Part shown: positions 6,023 to 64,000 of the stretch, in pieces
Layout: each line of letters starts with the position of its first letter
Numbering within the stretch: position 1 is the stretch's first letter
Assembly: GCA_002269645.1 (NCBI GenBank)
Contig: NIVC01003616.1
Coordinates: 23,490-87,489 of the forward strand
Length of the DNA: 64,000 bases
Direction of reading: 5' to 3'
Source of the DNA: Macrostomum lignano
Lineage: Eukaryota
Made by a program: the position numbers and the translations under genes
The notes under the pieces: generated by a model
Database searches by the model: none
Told to the model about the DNA's origin: nothing
Seen by the model: the letters and a program-made list of their open reading frames with translations, nothing else

Positions 6023-20669
<14,647 letters not shown>

Positions 20670-33929: not shown

Positions 33930-49635
<15,706 letters not shown>

Positions 49636-52729: not shown

Positions 52730-53356
52730 TCCTAATAGGAGTGATCCTTAGGGAGCTAATAGAAGTGATCTATAGGGAGCTAATAGGAGTGATCCCTAAA
52801 GGGAGCGAGTAGGAGTGATCCTTAGGGAGCGAGTAGGAGTGATCCTTAGGGAGCGAGTAGGAGTGATCCATAGGGAGCGAGTAGGAGTGATCCTTAGGGA
52901 GCGAGTAGGAGTGATCCTTAGGGAGCGAGTAGGAGTGATCCTTAGGGAGCGAGTAGGAGTGATCCTTAGGGAGCTAATACTAATAGGAGTGATTCTTAGG
53001 TAGCTAATAGGAGTGATTCTTAGGTAGCTAATAGGAATGATCCTTAGGTAGCTAATAGTAGTGATCCTTAGGTAGCTAATAGTAGTGATCCTTAGGTAGC
53101 TAATAGTAGTGATCCTTAGGTAGCTAATAGTAGTGATCCTTAGGTAGCTAATAGTAGTGATCCTTAGGTAGCTAATAGTAATGATCCTTAGGTAGCTAAT
53201 AGTAGTGATCCTTAGGTAGCTAATAGTAATGATCCTTAGGTAGCTAATAGTAGTGATCCTTAGGTAGCTAATAGTAATGATCCTTAGGTAGCTAATAGTA
53301 GTGATCCTTAGGTAGCTAATAGTAATGATCCTTAGGTAGCTAATAGTAGTGATCCT
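52730..53356. repeat. 24-bp minisatellite with two variant blocks (TAGGAGTGATCCTTAGGGAGCGAG / TAGTAGTGATCCTTAGGTAGCTAA) abutting the Polinton end
   Basis: Tandem units read directly. Confidence 0.93.
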
Positions 53357-53624
53357 AGTAGTATAGAAAAAGACGCTTCTAGACCCAGAGCACTTTTTTA
53401 ATGACCGTTTTAAGGGTCTAGAGGGGGGACACGGGGGGTAAATAAAAAAACACATCTAAACACCATTAATACATCTAATCACCCATAATCACCCCTAACA
53501 ATAAAAATCACTTCCCAACACTTCCAAACACTCCCCAACACCCCCCTCGCGTCCCCCCTCTTAAGACCTTACAAACGGTCATTAAAATAAGGTCTGATCT
53601 AGAAGCGTCTTTTTCTATACTACT
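53357..53624. repeat. Terminal palindrome: 27-bp perfect outer inverted repeat, about 85-bp imperfect arms, about 100-nt loop
   Basis: AGTAGTATAGAAAAAGACGCTTCTAGA (53357-53383) pairs with 53598-53624. Inner 15-bp (53396-53410/53573-53587) and 10-bp (53421-53430/53551-53560) perfect blocks. Confidence 0.95.
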
Positions 53625-54100
53625 ACTCTACCCAACACTTCCAACACTTCCAACACTTCCAACACACCCCAACACTTCTAACACTTCAAATTCTCTATAA
53701 CCCCTCGCACGCGCCGCAGGCGCGAAGGGGCACAGTCTGACCCAAACTGAGTCATAGAAAAGGAACAGTGTTTAACTATCTTAAAGCAGCTCACAAAAAG
53801 AAAAACTTTGCATGATCACCCCAAAGGGTCGCAGACAGTATAATGACTAACGTGGGAATTCGGGGTTTCTATTATACTCATCAATTACCGAAGCGCAAAC
53901 CTCAGACTCAAACTGGCTACAACAGGAAGGTGAGTTGCTTACTCATGAAAAGCGCTTTTATTATTTTCAGCACTCCACCCCAAGCTTTAATTGTGTGTAT
54001 AAGAATGATGAAATCTAAAAAACTAGCCACAGCAAATAGTCTCTTATTTATGCACAACTCCTAATATCTGTCTTTTACAAGAACTAACAAACGTATTATC

Positions 54101-54988
54101 ATGGCATCATCGAAAGAAGCAAGGATATCATCTATTGTCGAGATTGCTACGAATTTATCAAGGAAGGATAAGTCATTAATTGGTTGCCGACTTAAAGACT
54201 TCTCGGAGAAGGAATTGGAGGCCTTACATGATAGTTTAGAAAAGTTGGATGGGGTGAGTGAAAAGAAGCCGACCACCCAAAAGAGGAAAGAGAAAGGTTA
54301 TGTGGAGAATGTGCTAGAGACAATCTATCAGAAGTTAGAGGAGAACGAAGATAGAGGAGTTAGTGTGTGCGTGGAAGCGATTACACAAGGCCTATCCCAC
54401 GTTGGTCTCAAGCTTGAAGGTACGACCAAACATGATTTGATTGAAAGATTTAAGAAAATAAAGTCATCTATTGAAGCTCTATCGATTGCTAAGGCAATGA
54501 TGCAATTTGAGCAGGGTAGACTTATCTACTATTTAAGCACGAAGTATCGAATGACAGAGCGAGAGCTGGCCGACTCATTCAACATAACCAGCCGGAAGGT
54601 TGAGGATTATAAAAAATACTATCAACTCTGCCTTGAATACCCAGGTTTAATTTTTTCTACCTATTCAATGGGCATAGTAATTAATTATAGTGCTGCGATT
54701 TGCAAGAAGGCAAACAACGATGCCAGGTTTAAGGAACTTCTCAAGATGCAACACGAGACAGTTGCTTTGGTTTTGAAAGATGGCAGTCCTGAAGAAAAGC
54801 AAGTTCACCAGTGGTATGAAGACAGTAAGTGATTGCTTCACTATTGTGGTAATGTAAGTAAGTTCATATTTTTTAAAGCTTGCTTTTATATTGTAGCTTT
54901 CAACGAAGATCCTGACGCGGAAGACAAAGCTGAGAGCGCCGCCGAAGTCCGAGAGATGTTCGAAGGAGGAAAATGGGTTAAGAAGTAA
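54101..54988 (+). CDS. Putative HTH DNA-binding protein of the element, probably with a 72-nt intron (271 aa spliced; 243 aa unspliced)
   Basis: HTH-like MTERELADSFNITSRKVEDY. Donor GAC A|GTAAGT (54825) and acceptor TTTTATATTGTAG (54896); phase-1 join opens a 30-codon acidic exon ending in TAA at 54988. Confidence 0.7.
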
Positions 54989-55042
54989 ATAATTTGCGTG
55001 CTATTTCCATAACTATTAAACTGACAATCTTTTTAGTGTATA

Positions 55043-55143
55043 CATGAATTTTTCTCATAGCTTAGAAAAAATCATGTGTGTGTGTGCACCAAACTCTTTT
55101 AGTGTATACATGATTTTTTCTAAGCTATGAGAAAAATTCATGT
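55043..55143. other. Two inverted 34-bp sites with 13-8-13 (loxP/FRT-like) architecture
   Basis: 55043-55076 CATGAATTTTTCT-CATAGCTT-AGAAAAAATCATG is the exact reverse complement of 55110-55143. Each is preceded by the direct repeat TCTTTTTAGTGTATA. Confidence 0.85.
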
Positions 55144-55149
55144 GCTGTT

Positions 55150-55276
55150 ATAGACACAATGCACCGAGGACAGAGAGAAAAATGGCCATTCATCGAATAA
55201 AAAGCGTCCATTGTGCTCCAGCGGAGCAGGCCATTTGTGCCATCGGGCACAGCCCGCGAACCATAGGTTCATTTTT
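55150..55276. other. GC-richer structured non-coding segment with three tandem perfect hairpins followed by T5
   Basis: TGCTCC-agc-GGAGCA (55214-55228), TGTGCC-atcg-GGCACA (55236-55251), GAACC-ata-GGTTC (55258-55270). Confidence 0.5.
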
Positions 55277-55431
55277 GGATAGAGAATCTTTTGTGTTTGC
55301 GTCTTCTTTATTTTCTATACAAAAAAGAGTAAAAAAGAGCTATAAAATAAAATCGCTCGAGATGCTTGCACACTACCCTTTTCTTTAGTGTCTGCAACTT
55401 AATTTTTCTGTTACTAAAAAAAGAACAAAAA

Positions 55432-55842
55432 ATGACACACGTTACACATATGCAAAATCTGAACGAATTGCAGGTAGGAGACCCAGTTGAATACCGAGGT
55501 GAGGGTCTTTTTGATGTGGTTGGTACAGCAGCGAATTTCGTTAAAGACAATATGGGTCTTATAGGCCAAGCAGGCTCTGCAGCAGGTTCTATAACAAACG
55601 CTGTAAAGGGCGGAATCGAAGCAGCGAGGGCAGTAGAAGAACTAAAGAAATTGAGAGAATTTAACGACACCCTCTCACAAATAAAAGCAATAAAAGATTT
55701 GAAACTAGCGCAGGAAACAACTCAAGCCGCACAACCAACAGAAACCCCCACGAAAAGCACACCAATAAGTAATAAAGATATTCAGGATTTTAATAAAATG
55801 TTAACCACAATTAAAGGCGGAAAAGGATTAAAGAAATTTTAA
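55432..55842 (+). CDS. Virion core/membrane-lytic protein candidate (adenovirus pVI-like amphipathic helix)
   Basis: 136 aa; YRGEG then LFDVVGTAANFVKDN amphipathic helix; VKGG and IKGGKG resemble adenain cleavage sites. Confidence 0.6.
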   Translation: MTHVTHMQNLNELQVGDPVEYRGEGLFDVVGTAANFVKDNMGLIGQAGSAAGSITNAVKGGIEAARAVEELKKLREFNDTLSQIKAIKDLKLAQETTQAAQPTETPTKSTPISNKDIQDFNKMLTTIKGGKGLKKF

Positions 55843-55852
55843 CAATATAAAA

Positions 55853-56812
55853 ATGGACTCAGTTAATGACGAAAAACGGCTATATTTTATAGGAGAAATT
55901 GTAGATACTTTAAATCTAGACGATAATAAACATAGTCACGCAATGTTAAAAAGATTGGATCGCTTAGGCAAAAAATTTGACTACGACATCAATACATTTA
56001 AACTTGCTGCGAAATATGCACAAGAAGGAAGACCAATATCCTTTAAGAATCATGGTAGAAATTATAGGCTGACAGACTCCGATGTAAAATTTTTATTGGA
56101 GACTCACACTAAAAAGGACGGCGGGTTGTTACCCATTTTACCAATTCTTTTAGGACTTGGGGCAGCTGGAGCAGCTGGTTTAGCAGGAAAAAGAATTCAT
56201 GATAACATAAAACAGTTAGGAGAATTAAAAGCAAAAGAAGGGGGTATATTACCCCTCGCAACTTTGCTCCCAATAATTTTTGCAGGAATTGGAGCAGCTG
56301 GAGGAGTCGCTGGAGGAGCGGCTGGAATTGCAAAAGCAGTAAATGACAAAAAAGCCGCGGATGAAAAAGCCAAAAGAGAGGCCGAATTTCAAAGACAGCA
56401 AATAACACAGGACGCACAATTCAAACAAAAACTTATAGATACCATTAATAGTAGTTCAGCAACAGCAGAGCAAAAAAGAAATGCAGAAGCTAAATTAGCA
56501 GCTGGAAAAGGTTTAATTTTAAAAGGAACAACCCAAGGAAGTGGAGTTGTCGCAGATAAACTACATGAATTTGGCCAAACTTTAGAAAAAACGGGTGAGA
56601 AAGCTAAAGGATTTTTTGACAATATTGGATCCAATTTTAGACCAGCTGTTCAGAAAATTTTTAATAAATTAGGAAAAGATTTTAACATCATTGAAAAACA
56701 CGACGGAAGCGGATTATATCTCGAAATGCGACCAAAAGCAGGTTCAGGAATTTTCTTAAATTCAAACGTTATGGGAAATGGATTGCTATTACCAAAAGCA
56801 GATCTCGAATAG
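55853..56812 (+). CDS. Adenovirus pX(mu)-like core polyprotein with repeated Gly-flanked cleavage motifs
   Basis: GGILPLATLLPIIFAGIGAAGGVAGGAAGIAKAV closely resembles the adenovirus pX C-terminus. A second GGLLPILPILLGLGAAG segment and repeated GxG-hydrophobic motifs are present. Confidence 0.7.
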   Translation: MDSVNDEKRLYFIGEIVDTLNLDDNKHSHAMLKRLDRLGKKFDYDINTFKLAAKYAQEGRPISFKNHGRNYRLTDSDVKFLLETHTKKDGGLLPILPILLGLGAAGAAGLAGKRIHDNIKQLGELKAKEGGILPLATLLPIIFAGIGAAGGVAGGAAGIAKAVNDKKAADEKAKREAEFQRQQITQDAQFKQKLIDTINSSSATAEQKRNAEAKLAAGKGLILKGTTQGSGVVADKLHEFGQTLEKTGEKAKGFFDNIGSNFRPAVQKIFNKLGKDFNIIEKHDGSGLYLEMRPKAGSGIFLNSNVMGNGLLLPKADLE

Positions 56813-56896
56813 GCTCCTGGGGGGAGGGTCTGGACACCAAAAACACAAAATTAAAAAATCAATAATTCAAACATTATATAAATTTTATTCTATAAA

Positions 56897-59800
56897 ATGG
56901 AAGCAATTTTAGCTCAAATCGACAACCCTGAACTTAGAGCACAATTAATAGCTCAAATCGATGCACAACGAATTGCCGATAGGGCTGAAATAGAAGCAAG
57001 AATTAGGGCAGAAAATGAGATACGTTTAGAAAGACAATTAAATGATATTAATAACCCCCAACCACAAGGACAAAATGGAGCTGAAGTAATATATATAGAT
57101 ATAGATATAAATACAAATTATAAAGAATATTTTAAACAAATGAAAGATAAATTAAAGACTATATTAAACAATTATACTATAAGGCCAAATAACAAACGAC
57201 AGCCAATTAAGTATAAAATAGAAGTTGAAACAGAATTTAAAAAACCAAATATTCTTAATGCAAATTCAGAAATTGAAGTAATAAATAACTTTTCACAAGA
57301 ATCATATAAAACATTATTATCAATGGGAAATTACAACAATCAATTCGATCAAATAGAAGCTGAGTTTGATGAATGGATAGATAAGATGACAGAAAACGGA
57401 TCTGGGTTTATATTTGTATCCTGTAATTCAGCAATAGTAAAGATTGCACCTATAGAAATTCTTAAAGGACGATCACATATGAAGCTCAAATTTAAATCAC
57501 CTATGATTATAAATCCAGACAATAAAGATAATAAATGTTTATTATGGTGTTTATTAATTCATAAATATCACAATCAAGTAGAATCACACATTAATAAAAT
57601 ATATAATTATAGACAATATGAGGATGAAATAATAATGAAAAACATATCATACCCAGTAGCAATAGATGATATATATAAGATTGAAAAAATGAATGGTTTA
57701 AATATTAATGTGTTTACAATTGAAGAACCAAAAGATCTAGAAGAAATTTTAACCGATCCAGAATGGTATAAGAAAAGGTGTTATCTTGTTAAGCCAGCAA
57801 CTGATATAACAGCACCAGATCAAATCGATCTTTTGTACATGCAGCGCGAAAATGAAACACATTATATATACATAAAAGATATTAGTTCTTTTTAAGAGAA
57901 AATAGAAATAGATATCCACTATGTAGAAATTGTTTTACATTTAAAAAGGATGAAACAGCTCTTAAAAACCACCAACGATTTTGTTTAGATCACAAATTTA
58001 CTAATGCTATAATGCCAGCATCTGAAGATGCAACCCTAAAGTTCCAACAACATTATATGGCAGTTAAAAAACCAATAGTAATATATGCTGATTTTGAAGC
58101 AACAAATGTTCCCTTAAAAGAATCACAGACGGTATCTGATGACGGTGATCGTGCAAAGCACGCGACCCTACGGGACGAATGCACAAAAAAATTGGCACAA
58201 CAGTTTCCGAATAGTTATTGTATATATGTACACTCTGTAGCTGATCATATATTTAAATCAAGGATGATTACTTACCACGGTAATGATGCAGCTAAGCACA
58301 TGGCAGAATCATTAGTAAATGTATTTGAATATATTCAAAATCAATATGATAAATTATCAAAAAATATTAATATGACAAATAAGGATAGAGACAATTATAA
58401 AAATGCAACAAATTGTTTTATGTGCAAAAGACATTTAAGTAAGAATAATAAGATACGAGAACATTGTCATCTAACGGAATTATCGAGGGGCAGCATGTAG
58501 ATCATGTAACGCAAAAGAAGGAAAAGGATGTAAGGAAATACCAGTATTTTTTCATAATGGTTCCGGATATGATTTTCATTTCTTAGTTCGAGAATTGCTT
58601 CATTTAGGAAAGGATGAATATGAAATAAATATATTACCTAAAACATCAGAAAATTACATATCAATAACATATGGTAAGAAATACTCCCATCTAGTTTTTC
58701 TAGATTCCTTGAGATTCTTATCAACATCTTTAGCAAATGTTGTTTCATCATTAGTTCCAAAACCATGGGATTTAGAAATAGTAAAGAAAAACTTTCCAAT
58801 CTATTGAATCGTTTCAAAAAAGAAAAACTATCCGAGGAAGAACTAATGCTATTAACTCGTAAGGGCATCTATCCATATGAATATGTAACATCTGAAGACG
58901 TATTTTCTCATACCGAATTACCCCCAATTGATAAGTTTTATTCCACATTATCACAAACAAATATAAGTGAATCGGATTATGAACACGCTCAAAAAGTATG
59001 GAAATATTTTAATTGTAAAACATTTAAAGATTATCATAATCTATATCTTAAAGCAGATGTTCTCCTATTAGCTGATGCATTTGAAAACTTTAGGAATCAT
59101 ACATATGAGAATTTTAAAATTGATCCCGCATATTGTTTCAGTGCACCGGGATTAACATGGGCTTGTGGTTTGAAATACACAGATGTTAAGATTGATTTAC
59201 TAACTGATCATGATATGTTGTTAATGATTGAGAGAGGAATTCGCGGTGGATTCTCGGGTGTACTAGGAGATAGATATACTAAAGTAAATAATAAATATCT
59301 ACCAAATTATAATAAAAAAGAAAAATCATCATATGTATTATATCTAGATGCAAACAATTTATACGGTGGTTGTATGAAACAAAAATTACCAATAGCTGAT
59401 TTCCAATGGGAAGATGACCCCGATTATTACAAAAATATTCCCGAAGGAAGGGGCTGTATTGTAGAGTGGATTTGCAATATACTCGGGAAGCAAAAGCAAA
59501 AACATATAAATATCCTTTAGCTCCAGAGCATTGTTCAGTTAATGAAGATGATTTATCACAAACACAAAAAGATTATCTTAAAGTAGATAATGCAAAACAT
59601 CTAGCAACAAAAAAATTAATATTAAATTTACATGATAAGAAAAACTATGTAGTGCATTATAAGCTTCTACAATTTTATGAAAAGCAGGGATTAAAAGTGT
59701 CTAAAGTACATCGAACAATATCGTTTATTGAGGAAGATTGGTTAGCTAAATATATTGACTTTAATTCAAATCAGAGACAGATGTCAAAAACAAATTTTGA

Positions 59801-60886
59801 GAAAGATTATTGGAAATTAATGAATAATGCTTTTTATGGAAAAACGGTTGAAAATATTAGAGATAGAACCCAATTCCATTTAGAAAAGGATATTGATAAA
59901 GCAAAGAAATATTTCTCAAAACCTAACTTTAAAGACTTTATAAAATTTGATGATAACTTTATGGGTATTCATATGAGAAATAAAACAACAAAATTTCTTA
60001 AACCAATATTTATTGGAATGGTTGTTTTAGATTTGCAAAGCTAGTAATGTATGAATACTATTATGATGTTATAAATAAAACATGGCCAGATAACTATCCA
60101 ATATATGCAGACACCGACAGTTTGGTATTTAAGGTTGAAACAGATGACCGGACGGAGTCCGCGAACCAAAGGTTCGATGTCTATAAAGATATGGAAAAAA
60201 TTAAGGATACATTGGATACCTCCGACTATCCGGATAACCATCCTTTAAAATCAGATCAAAATAAAAAAGTTGTACTTAAAATGAAAGATGAATTAAATAG
60301 CAAAATCATAACCGAGTTTATAGCAATAAGATCAAAATGCTATGCATTTAAGGTTTTAGGACAGGAGGGAGAGGTAAAAAAAATAAAAGGGGTATCAAGA
60401 GCAGCAGTAAAAAAGATAACATTTGATGATTATAAAAACGTACTTTTAGATTACCTTAATACAATTGAAAATTATCATGCTCCACAATATCGATTAAATT
60501 CAGATAAGCATCAGATGTTTGTCATCGAGACAGATAAAAAAACATTAAGTCCATTTGATGATAAAAGATATTTAGATGATAAAATTAAAACATATCCATA
60601 TGGTTTAAAAGAAGAGATAAAAAATATGATAAAAGATAAAAAACAAAAAGAAGATATAATAAGTAAATATAATGAATACAAAGCGGCAATAAATAATTAT
60701 TATTACGATTGTGATTGTGAATCCGAATGTGATTGTGAATATAATACATTTCTAGAATATGAAAAAGATATAGATAATTATTATTCAACATTTCCAAAAG
60801 AACTTAAAAAATTAAATAAGGAAAAAGTCTTGAATAACTGGAAGAGATTAACAGAAAAATTACTTATCGGGTCTGTAAAAAACTAA
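56897..60886 (+). pseudogene. Protein-primed family B DNA polymerase (pPolB), split by 5 frameshifts in this assembly
   Basis: N-terminal ENGSG / NPDNKDNKC / HYIYIKD region, C2H2 finger, IYADFE (Exo I), EndoVII-like EHCH..RG..C..CN, FHNGSGYD (Exo II), YLDANNLYG, KLMNNAFYGK, YADTDS and PFDDKRY. Confidence 0.95.
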
Positions 60887-61219
60887 AGCATGTAATTGTT
60901 TGAGCAAATCATTAACTTCAATTTCATATATTATTGAGCACCAATTATCCTCACAGTCGGCAGGGTAACTTAAACAATCCTTTATTTTTTTCCTAAGTTT
61001 TTTTATTTTTCTAACCAATCTATCTATTTCAATTTCAATTACTATTTCAGCATAAACAATATCTTGTCTTAAAAAACGTTTTCTTTTATCTATCTCATAT
61101 CGGATGGGAAACATATCGTCCCCATACTCATGATATTTCTGAGATATAATTATATTTATTTTTTTATTAATATCATTAAGTTCACGCTCTTTAGTGATAA
61201 GGATTTTTATCGTATCCAT
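60860..61219 (-). CDS. Hypothetical coiled-coil protein of the element (119 aa)
   Basis: Intact ORF with an A-rich start context, convergent with and overlapping the pPolB end. Confidence 0.55.
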   Translation of the reverse strand: MDTIKILITKERELNDINKKINIIISQKYHEYGDDMFPIRYEIDKRKRFLRQDIVYAEIVIEIEIDRLVRKIKKLRKKIKDCLSYPADCEDNWCSIIYEIEVNDLLKQLHALVFYRPDK

Positions 61220-61234
61220 TTTCTTATAAAAAAT

Positions 61235-61566
61235 TTAGTCTTCGTCGTCATCCTCCCAAACAGCCGCCAATTTTACAGTCCTATCACTCTTTTATTATTT
61301 GTTTGTTTTAGTTTAAATTGCAATCCACCCTCGTTGCAGTATTTCATAACAAACGCTTTAGGTTTATTAATAACTAAAACAGGAAAATTTTTAACATCAT
61401 CTCCGCTTAGACATAAAATTTTTTGCCCATCTAATTGTAAAAATATTGATTGAAGCCCAATAAATTTAACCTGTCTCAAACATACAATATTATATTCTTT
61501 ATTCTCCAACATATTGGGTGTGAGATAATTAATCACATTAGAATCGGTTTTGAACCAGCTCTCCAT
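61235..61566 (-). CDS. Small beta-rich protein, possibly ssDNA-binding; acidic tail after a 1-nt frameshift
   Basis: 97-aa ORF; adding 1 nt near 61275 extends it to KLAAVWEDDDED-stop (61237-61235). Confidence 0.45.
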
Positions 61567-61592
61567 TTTTAATCTAAAAAAATAATAAAAAA

Positions 61593-62053
61593 ATGAAAGA
61601 CATTTATGTTTGTAATAAATGTAATGTGACTATGCACAGAGGGCAAACAGCAAACGGAGATATATATCATATGTGTTATTCATGTTCTAAAATATATCAA
61701 TTTGAAAAAACAAAAAAGATTGAAAACTCATATTACTATTTTAAAAAACAATTTTAAGAAATCTTACAAGAGACATTTCTGATCCAATTTTAATTCCCGG
61801 AAATAATGTTTATTTATATAATAACTTTTTCCATTTAAATAAAGGAAAGGGATTAAGTTCGAAAGACTCCGAAAGGATTTTAATTTTAGTTGGATATTAT
61901 TTCAATTTTCTTATTCGAGAGAATACAAAGTTTATAAGGATAGGTAACATACCTAACGAAATGTTACTGAAAAAGTCATTGGAATTTTTATGTATTGATA
62001 AAAAATTTAAACCTAGATCAGAAGAGAGTTACCACTTTGGGAAGAATATATAA
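61593..62053 (+). CDS. Zn-ribbon protein (CxxC-x17-CxxC), below the track cut-off; about 153 aa if one A is restored at about 61745
   Basis: MKDIYVCNKC...HMCYSC to TAA at 61757; the -1 frame stays open to TAA at 62053. Confidence 0.55.
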
Positions 62054-62070
62054 CATATGCATTAGAAAAA

Positions 62071-62726
62071 CTAAACAACCTGAAGTTCTACCGCACTTCC
62101 TGACCGCGGGCTTTGTGCCCCAGTAGCAATAGTTTCAGGTTCGTAAATGCCTAATGTTTCTATCGGTGGAGCTTTGGGTTTATCGAGTCTCAACTCTTTT
62201 AATTCCATATCGGTAAAAGTTTCAACATCTAAAATTCTATTTCTATCTTTTAAATATTTTTCATATAATTCAACCGCGGTTGATAATTCATGAATCGTTA
62301 TCTCTCCGTCATCCAATATTTTTTGCACATATAAATATAATTGATTTTTATATTGCTTGGCAACATCTCTTAATGATTTATATTTTTCCTTTCTTTTTTT
62401 AAGATATAATTTAATTGCTAAAAGTATTGATAAGTTCTGATCAATTCAAAACCTGATATTGAGCCAATTGAAATACCTAAAAATAATTGAGATAAATTAA
62501 GAGTTGGAATAGATTGTAAAATACCTAAAACGATTACACATAACATTGATAAGCTTCCAAATCCAATATTGAAAAAGTCCATATTTCTTATATGGTTTGA
62601 AATTCTTCTTACTTTTTTAGTATATAAACCATAATCATAATTTATTCGATCAACATTACTTAACATCTGACCTTTACGTTGGTTGAACCGGTCGCGTTCC
62701 CATTTATCTGCTTCAGATACCGACAT
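62071..62726 (-). CDS. Two-TM protein of a type common in Polintons, split by one -1 frameshift at about 62420
   Basis: Two hydrophobic segments, then a basic stretch and LDDGEITIHELSTAVELYEKY in the -1 frame. Family recognition is from memory only. Confidence 0.55.
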
Positions 62727-63035
62727 TCTCGTCTATTTTTAATAGCACCAAAATGAATTCCCCACGCTCTTTGGGGATTTGTCCCGAGCTCAATAGGTAT
62801 TGTATTGGAGTTATTCTTTCTTTTTCTCCCATTTAAATCCTATTTTCCAAAACTCTTGAAGTATAATATGATTTTTTAATAACTTAATTAATTCTTGAAG
62901 CTTCTTATTATCCTGAACATTTACAGTACTAAATAAAAATTTGGTATGAGATTTGAATGTTTTTATATTTGATTCTTGTTTAGGAATAGGAATAATAACA
63001 TTATTTTGCCATCGATGGGTTCTACTAAAAGCCAT
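62713..63035 (-). CDS. Hypothetical protein (74 aa; about 107 aa if one A is restored)
   Basis: ORF 63035-62811; the -1 frame is open to TGA at 62715-62713. Confidence 0.4.
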
Positions 63036-63085
63036 TTTATATATAAATATTTAAGGTATCGACTTTCGCGACTTAGGCTTTAGCC

Positions 63086-64000
63086 TTAGGCGATTTCGGT
63101 TTGTGGCCGTTCCAAATATGCGGTCGCAGCAAAATCATATCCTGCTGATGTGCTACCACAAACGGCTGCACACGAATAAAATGTGCGCATCGCTCCTCCA
63201 GTTCGAGCACCAAAACCCATAAGAGTTCCCGTTTTATCTAAATCTCCCCAAGTTCCACTATCATATGTAAAAAAGTTTTGCCCAATTAGCGTATATGTAT
63301 TAGCTGATACATTGTATGTGCTTATTTGATACCAAACTCTTTGATTTAAAATATTAATTTCAAAAAGATGCAATCGCCGTTATCAATATTAGCATAGGTT
63401 ATAGTTTGATCTGCGTCATTAAGAACATCATTACGAGCTGTTGCACCGTCTGATTTTATATTGCTCCAACAACCCCAACTCTATCATGCCATTCACTCGC
63501 AAACACAATCAAGCCGGCGCGGGTTGTTAACCCGGATCCAAATTCACTTGTTGGACGTTCGTGACAATATGCACATAAAACCAAACGTCAGCCACCACTT
63601 CCTGTAGCATTAGCAACTCGGAAATAGAAGGAGGCGGAGATATTACGAAAATGGGTGAAATTAAATTGTACGCTCCAGACCGACCGATGCTTCATCAGTA
63701 ATTCTAGCACCATTTTGATAATCTATATAAGAAGCATCTCCAACAAAACTTCCTGTTGGAAAAATATCGCCGGCGTGGTTGGGTTTTGATACCAGTCCAA
63801 TTGCAAATTACGGCTCGTACAAAGCGCATCGATTGCAGGTATTCCATCCAATTTTATTTTATCATTAAAAGACATTCGCCATCCGCCGTTTGTGTTACTC
63901 GCGTGTCAACATAACCTTTAGTAACAACAGAACTGTTATCGTTTATATTAGAGACATTGGTGATCGTATTGGAACCCATATCAATTGATTGATTAACAAA
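63086..64000 (-). pseudogene. Fibre/receptor-binding-like gene with a ConA-like (L-type lectin/LamG) C-terminal domain, multiply frameshifted, 5' part outside the window
   Basis: Shaft-like IDMGSNTITNV...VVTKGYVD, then ASFYFRV..GSG(G)ADVWF, NGD(W)HLFEINI and MGFGARTGG across several frames. Confidence 0.6.

Follow-up and report, generated by a model that had tools for sequence, protein, structure and literature searches.

The last part of the window, as the 64,000-nt stretch of Macrostomum lignano contig NIVC01003616.1 analysed here is called, holds a virus-like Polinton whose left arm raises a question: what is a spliced gene with two palindromes doing between the terminal repeat and the first structural gene? 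A first-pass annotation regarded this arm as a control module, perhaps a latency or excision switch. The features of the element are:

53357 to 53729, plus strand: left terminal inverted repeat (TIR), of which the first ~270 bp is itself palindromic
53730 to 55402, plus strand: variable cargo slot of 1673 bp, in which sister left arms differ
54101 to 54988, plus strand: gene for a 271-aa protein, with exons at 54101-54824 and 54897-54988
54825 to 54896, plus strand: 72-nt GT..AG intron, its joint present in sequence-run contigs
55042 to 55077, no strand: palindrome 1, 36 bp, with outer arms ACATGA..TCATGT
55108 to 55143, no strand: palindrome 2, reverse complement of palindrome 1
55150 to 55300, plus strand: short hairpins in a cluster that includes AATAAA at 55196, where the gene probably has its 3' end
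55432 to 55842, plus strand: 136-aa ORF, called pVI-like in the first-pass annotation, without family match
55853 to 56812, plus strand: 319-aa ORF, one stretch of which weakly resembles adenovirus pX
56897 to 60886, plus strand: protein-primed DNA polymerase B (pPolB), in several frames in this copy
60860 to 63035, minus strand for most: small accessory ORFs, some broken
63065 to 64000, minus strand: fibre-like gene, 3' part, disrupted in this copy and running to the contig end

The element is a canonical Polinton that encodes virion-type genes, as the first-pass annotation had proposed. In the window, pPolB is recognized by Pfam family PF03175 (E 2.4e-6, above the cut-off), its reading frame being broken across several frames. 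The contig stops at 64000, before the expected position of the rve integrase, for which matches came from sister copies alone (PF00665, with E 1.8e-7 and 1.3e-6, slightly below the curated cut-off). One sister copy contains an A32-type packaging ATPase (PF04665, E 1.4e-6), and the ORF set of the C1867 copy includes a DJR-like capsid ORF (PF21738, E 6.7e-5, below the cut-off), the predicted model of which is beta-rich and of low confidence (pLDDT 49). Protease-like and penton-like ORFs of sister copies fit a Polinton in size and position, and neither was matched in Pfam and PDB searches; the former has the motif order H-D-Q-C, which we take to be that of an adenain-like protease. Sister copies have TIRs at both ends, the element is ~19 kb long, and a 6-bp target duplication flanks two of the four two-ended copies, with none in C2221 and C5134.

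The pPolB, integrase and ATPase, the TIRs, the 6-bp duplication and the length are shared with Polinton/Maverick elements (pfam03175-type, Alpha-class adintovirus PolB), as the candidate capsid, protease and penton ORFs would be, whereas a terminal repeat that folds back on itself through co-varying arms and a cassette of HTH gene and palindromes are, in the passages compared, found in the present element alone (PMC8502044, PMC10748475). A search of mostly open-access literature returned no paper on Polintons of Macrostomum and none on a module of HTH gene and palindromes in a Polinton. Adintovirus gene maps in supplements could list the cassette protein family as 'Adintoc'.

Some of the gene names given earlier were upheld and others were weakened. 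The 136-aa ORF is present and was presumably named pVI-like from resemblance, but matched no family in Pfam or PHROG at E < 0.03; the pX-like stretch of the 319-aa ORF is a weak match only (Adeno_PX, E 0.022, below the cut-off). The pPolB assignment holds, with frames split in the window copy. As for the lectin-tipped fibre, the fibre ORF of one sister copy contains, beyond the window, an F5/8 type C lectin domain (E 1e-8), but at residues 41-140 of 471 and so not at the C-terminal tip; in the fibre of another copy it was undetected. A supposed likeness of an L117 ORF to a small Polinton gene was not confirmed.

The element starts with AGTAGT at 53357, and the palindromic end reported in the first-pass annotation is borne out by perfect 28-nt outer arms (53356-53383 and 53598-53625) and a folding z of -15.3. 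When eight ends were compared, 11 of the 72 predicted pairs had two-sided changes. A CCAACACTT-type short repeat follows at ~53626-53692 and is absent from many ends. Behind this terminus the copies diverge: by its junction signature, the 1.67-kb segment is present on 10 of 77 left ends, and 10 sister arms that were checked carry unrelated DNA of 154 or 347 bp in the slot. Both cassette-less alleles contain palindromes too, each slot allele having a palindrome of different sequence. Most family members lack the cassette and yet have ends that are 99% identical, so the cassette is not needed in cis. Between elements with and without it, the next two genes are 88-93% identical and pPolB 99-100%, which is consistent with a recombined left arm. 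In addition, a second Polinton family has a 91%-identical cassette behind its end at C283 and C1298.

The presence of the left arm is therefore optional. Absence from sister copies, which the first-pass annotation had itself named as a refutation, is largely what was found (67 of 77 by signature, 10 loci verified). The element can therefore do without this arm for its control, yet the arm is not host DNA either; what stands of the original proposal is an undescribed gene-plus-palindrome module. The slot is best read as a swappable cargo cassette. In nematode Mavericks, a variable region by the left TIR has raised GC and little conservation, and its intron-containing genes are exchanged between elements; the cargo there consists of WASP proteases and KRMA kinases and adjoins the integrase (bioRxiv 10.1101/2022.07.12.499685). 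The M. lignano slot is likewise a variable, intron-containing and probably exchanged region of higher GC at the left TIR, but it carries palindromes and a predicted DNA-binding protein that has no name, and its neighbours are virion-type genes.

The cassette gene is spliced. The joint across intron 54825-54896 was found in contigs of six of eight sequence runs (X1, X2, X5, X9, X10 and X11, not X15 and X18); none of the eight is recorded as RNA, and expression was judged solely from this joint. A few letters distinguish the spliced contigs from the window, and their source may be sister copies. An upstream intron with its donor at 53930 was rejected, its joint occurring in none of the eight runs and one contig reading through. 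The substitution pattern indicates purifying selection, with dN/dS of 0.33-0.36 against 88% homologs; against 50% homologs, synonymous sites are saturated and pN is 0.29-0.33.

The 271-aa protein has a basic stretch (51-70), long helices, a predicted HTH (~153-179) and an acidic tail. Its model (pLDDT 91.9) places helices at 153-160 and 164-179, and Foldseek, which gave no match at E 0.001 (best 0.37), repeatedly returned weak HTH matches, namely LsrR (39 columns at 1.0 A), sigma region 4 and SopB/ParB. A weak sequence match to a DeoR-type HTH (E 0.045) agrees, and the HTH predicted in the first-pass annotation is thus consistent with both the matches and the modelled helix pair. The family of this protein has no name and comprises 64 representatives. 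Pfam and PHROG hold no family for it, conserved host families and ParB families gave no sequence match, and viral contigs contained no relative of P0017. A word-based search with wide alignment added just one further protein, and the top ESM Atlas matches were unnamed clusters (0.91-0.92, low recognition) and uninformative.

Capture of a host gene that then travels as passive cargo would account for the intron and for a GC above that of pPolB (0.405 against 0.287), as in nematode Maverick cargo, and three of 21 gene-bearing loci lack both Polinton ends and Polinton genes over a distance of 10 kb. The other 18 adjoin Polinton ends or genes, however, a distant homolog lies ~0.8 kb from pPolB on a metagenome contig, and no conserved host family matches; we regard this origin as highly unlikely. 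Of seven homolog contigs from beyond the M. lignano genome, one has a Polinton gene and six are shorter than 3 kb.

The gene and the palindromes occur together. A palindrome lies at most 1.2 kb downstream at 11 of 14 close-clade loci, against none of 13 distant ones, and in the downstream 900 nt the palindromes are the sole similarity between the window and C2606 and between C2606 and C3267. Distant subfamilies have other downstream repeat arrays (119, 140 and 89 bp) with palindromic words. Only two of the seven homolog contigs from outside the M. lignano genome have a palindrome downstream that comes close to or exceeds the level of shuffles. Among the palindrome clusters listed, 12 of 16 are situated at second-family Polinton ends, away from any such gene, which makes gene and site separable; these arrays have a 60-bp period and 1-24 copies, and are preceded by a hammerhead-like motif. 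The window has a 66-bp direct repeat. Two inverted sites had been described in the left arm, and both exist and are 100% complementary, but at 36 bp rather than 34.

In Cre/loxP, paired sites each have two arms around a ~8-bp centre, and the asymmetric spacer gives direction. The roughly 14-8-14 geometry and inverted pair in the window copy resemble this arrangement and had suggested a site-specific inversion or excision switch, but there is no conserved asymmetric spacer: the centres of related sites, GAACGTTC and AACGCGTT, are self-complementary, in sites of variable length (34 or 36 bp). The intervening DNA is never inverted in 12 of 12 assembled loci with paired sites, recombinase families were matched at E 0.01 by none of the 47 ORFs (at least 75 aa) of the C1867 copy, which is bounded by target duplications, nor by the model of the HTH protein in the structure search, and the borders of the variable segment lie away from the sites. 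Such a switch is scarcely credible. The palindromes may instead act as RNA, pairing within the 3' UTR into a perfect stem of 36 bp that serves 3'-end formation, stability or small RNAs. Both sites follow the stop (54988) and precede the AATAAA, spliced contigs extend into them, they could pair with one another in full, and there is the motif before the second-family arrays. Against this, C1966, C532 and C2606 have their sites in direct orientation or close to symmetric, which means that conservation does not extend to the long stem itself, and in related sites stem and loop lengths shift while the outer sequence stays. Rfam gave nothing at gathering score for the left arm, where sub-threshold miRNA-type models fit the long hairpin only, or for nine related loci, and a hammerhead pattern is absent from the window. 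The structured RNA-like segment of the first-pass annotation is unsupported, region 55150-55300 having a folding z of -1.5 (-0.4 to -1.6 on the plus strand in six copies). An RNA role is unlikely on this evidence. A similarly doubtful case can be made for structure-driven repeats, hairpins or cruciforms that aid replication or recombination at Polinton ends, hitchhike with the gene and do not serve its protein as binding sites; the gene-less arrays, the differing palindrome in each slot allele and the co-varying fold-back of the terminal repeat point that way. The same outer arms nevertheless stand behind three gene lineages in which the rest of the downstream DNA is unalignable and synonymous sites are saturated, and distant gene subfamilies have different arrays.

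With moderate confidence, we favour a Polinton with an optional cassette, in which the palindromes are likely bound by the predicted HTH protein as a regulator of nearby transcription and which moves by homologous recombination. The protein would dimerize and bind the palindromes, which may serve as enhancer or operator at the junction between the cassette gene and the first structural gene; ordinary homologous recombination, rather than a site-specific switch, would carry the cassette from one Polinton lineage to another. The conserved outer arms are ~25 bp apart, which exceeds the usual span of an HTH dimer. IE1 binds the palindromes of baculovirus homologous regions (hrs). The hrs act in cis and are built of ~60-bp repeats that contain one imperfect palindrome apiece, and their enhancer and origin activity has been shown (PMC4535591). 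The 60-bp period of the second-family arrays and the 66-bp repeat in the window resemble them, whereas any such activity of the present system is putative, its protein has no detected kinship to IE1, the window copy has just two sites, and the cassette is dispensable. The likeness to ParB/SopB with their parS/sopC palindromes consists of the Foldseek matches to SopB/ParB chains (E 1.1-2.3, not significant), and ParB sequence families gave no match.

A three-unit heat-shock element is absent within 600 bp upstream in the window and in five other loci with the same promoter type, whereas nine of 17 loci overall, in other subfamilies, have a perfect one. A latency or stress switch could still apply to the wider gene family, in which the window lineage is without such an element. 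A bolder and less probable reading is that animal Polintons share a swappable regulator-operator system, in which an unnamed HTH family and subfamily-specific palindrome arrays would be exchanged between families, with a minority of copies acting in trans, would in some cases be wired to heat-shock elements (not in the window lineage), and would control transcription or reactivation.

To our knowledge, no activation route of integrated animal Polintons has been described, and the search of mostly open-access literature found no described Polinton regulator. Should binding fail, the remaining result would be a new cargo family in a known type of slot. An expressed candidate regulator and candidate sites, present in some copies and missing from near-identical ones, allow a direct test in a laboratory flatworm.

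The element starting at 53357 is a Polinton, in a host given by the source labels as Macrostomum lignano. It directly abuts a 24-bp tandem repeat, GC content, about 0.50 in the flank, drops to 0.26–0.40 inside, and pPolB is present in the window (PF03175, E 2.4e-6). The window is the final 64 kb of contig C3616, and the element is therefore cut at 64000. Sister copies, 95–99% identical to it across the first 9.5 kb, continue into a gene for a fibre-like protein, ORFs resembling those for protease and penton, a nuclease slot, an A32 ATPase (E 1.4e-6), an rve integrase and a capsid candidate (DJR-like domain at E 6.7e-5, below the cut-off; model pLDDT 49). Their far end, about 19 kb off, is the left end inverted. 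Four copies have both flanks visible; a 6-bp target duplication is present in two (C1867 and C349) and absent from two (C2221 and C5134). These features match the Polinton definition in the accessible text of PMC10748475, and the virion-gene element proposed in the first-pass annotation holds. In each of the 11 loci examined the pPolB gene was split, at differing positions, which may reflect long-read indels.

The tandem repeat unit (52734–53356) includes AGTAGT, also the terminal word of the element. The slot adjoining the integrase is a second swappable slot, with an Eco47II-like nuclease ORF in one copy (L019:2821–3348, E 0.0015) and, in others (L021:2804–3442), a putative HNH-like ORF. The first part of the integrase frame at L021:1221–2477 bears a weak likeness to phospholipase A2 (PF08398, E 0.02). 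Short GC-rich mini-hairpin stretches lie within or between the AT-rich genes (58137–58180, 60149–60175 and 63060–63100), one resembling 55244–55270 (81%). Extreme strand skew over 10001–17000 and 44001–49000 (GC skew -1.0; AT skew -0.6) probably marks satellites.

Features of the left arm in the window
53357–53625, fold-back terminal repeat
53730–55402, optional 1.67-kb cassette
54824–54897, splice joint (GT..AG intron) of the predicted HTH gene
55042–55077, palindrome 1
55108–55143, palindrome 2
55150–55300, RNA-like segment

The palindromic end was confirmed as a self-complementary fold of the first ~270 bp (z -15.3; 0 of 200 shuffles). Among eight ends compared, 11 of 72 predicted pairs carry changes on both sides, seven of them within the outer 27 bp. 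The outer arm is therefore being homogenised with its complement inside the repeat, likely by fold-back in replication or repair. A second element end is recreated 270 bp inside by the inner copy of the repeat. The fold-back is common to all ends and is no part of a control module.

The entire left arm was found by DNA search in eight places, including the window. A left-end census, based on an exact-match pattern at the terminal repeat's inner end and designed to leave out right ends, gave 77 sites leading into the cassette (10), a second allele (44), a third allele (21) or other DNA (2). Twenty loci fetched as a check comprised 10 left arms, eight right ends and two internally deleted cassettes behind a different end; in the 10 left arms, the cassette is replaced by unrelated DNA of 154 or about 347 bp. 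The unusual left arm is thus real but not obligatory. Cassette-bearing and cassette-less copies share 88–93% identity across the two genes that follow and 99–100% from pPolB onward, a profile that fits arm exchange via homologous recombination; mosaicism is described as common within this virus group in the available text of 10.64898/2026.10.13.758929. In C283 and C1298, the end of a second Polinton family is followed by a 91%-identical cassette. The slot is comparable to the variable, intron-bearing cargo region adjoining the left TIR of nematode Mavericks, as far as the accessible text describes it (bioRxiv 10.1101/2022.07.12.499685). Both cassette-less alleles have their own palindromes upstream of the first structural gene.

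Palindromes of the cassette-less slot alleles
L076:821–974, about 100 bp, imperfect
L082:845–1191, 16–21 bp

Splicing of the predicted HTH gene was borne out in contigs of six of eight runs (4/4, then 2/4 further; five studies in all), none recorded as RNA, and the spliced product is identical to an annotated 271-aa protein. The joint was not in contigs of runs X15 and X18, one X18 contig spanning the intron unspliced. Against two 88% homologues dN/dS was 0.36 and 0.33; against 50% homologues synonymous sites were saturated. Genome search gave 80 matches spanning several subfamilies, and a Polinton end or gene lay within 10 kb at 18 of 21 gene-bearing loci. Profile search gave 64 representatives (E ≤0.001), and a distant group aligned over 212 columns (99.3% probability). 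None of 53 members reached a Pfam cut-off. The protein model is confident (pLDDT 91.9) and almost all helix and had no Foldseek match at E 0.001; HTH chains (LsrR, sigma region 4, SopB, ParB) recur among weak matches, and the best PDB match of the family profile is a DeoR-type HTH (positions 138–179, E 0.045). Distant homologues lie on seven metagenome contigs: six are shorter than 3 kb, and the remaining one has a pPolB ~0.8 kb from the homologue (E 7e-17). In one metagenome contig (L116:1525–1706), a distant homologue is followed immediately by a 40-bp palindrome, its score reached by 1 of 40 shuffles, and three 47-bp repeats.

The window palindromes are imperfect 36-bp sites within a 66-bp direct repeat. 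Their outer-arm pattern occurs 121 times genome-wide (control pattern, 0). Of 14 close-clade loci, 11 have it downstream of the gene, the other three being one truncated and two decayed copies, versus 0 of 13 distant loci; distant subfamilies have other arrays there instead. Over the downstream 900 nt, the palindrome sites are the only sequence shared between the window and C2606 and between C2606 and C3267; the window and C3267 gave no match. The gene is missing at 12 of 16 palindrome clusters listed, and these 12 all lie ~1 kb inside second-family ends, with 1–24 copies, which counts against strict gene–site pairing. The inverted sites had been likened to lox; the palindromes stand, and lox-type behaviour is argued against by the symmetric centres of related sites, a spacer in the same orientation at 12 of 12 loci and no recombinase among 47 ORFs of one complete sister copy.

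The putative structured RNA found no support: the segment folds weakly (z -1.5), no better in five other copies; three copies have lost part of it, and in one it is scrambled. The first AATAAA past the gene stop falls within it. As to a stress switch, nine of 17 loci have a perfect three-unit heat-shock element in the 600 bp upstream of the gene, among them none of the six with the window's promoter type. None of eight 36-bp sites contains such an element either, and the window copy therefore has no sign of heat-shock control. The same element lies inside 50 of 66 34-bp palindromes (L096–L112; 24 of the 66 form one array), and these arrays may be heat-shock-factor sites. Just upstream of such arrays is a minimal hammerhead-ribozyme motif (13 pattern matches, some loci overlapping), decayed in several copies and accompanied by putative promoter elements: a TATA box, plus A and B boxes of RNA polymerase III type. 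These loci had no Rfam match at gathering score, and literature search found no Polinton with a hammerhead.

Hammerhead motif with 34-bp arrays, second family
L070:5660–6020
L098:4740
L105:4884
L107:5996

The basic stretch, predicted HTH and acidic tail make a nuclear DNA-binding regulator the most likely reading of the predicted protein. It would recognise the conserved outer arms of the palindromes, presumably as a dimer, and would tune transcription where its own gene meets the first structural gene; it may also act in trans at gene-less arrays. Palindromes acting at the RNA level, or serving a structure-only role, are real rivals to recognition by the protein. The proposed module would work like the baculovirus hr sequences and their activator, as outlined in the accessible text of PMC4535591, but does not itself belong to that system. 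As to an undescribed system, the element and its slot are of known kinds; the cargo gene family with its palindromes, not found in a literature search that included the accessory-gene section of PMC8502044, would be what is new here.
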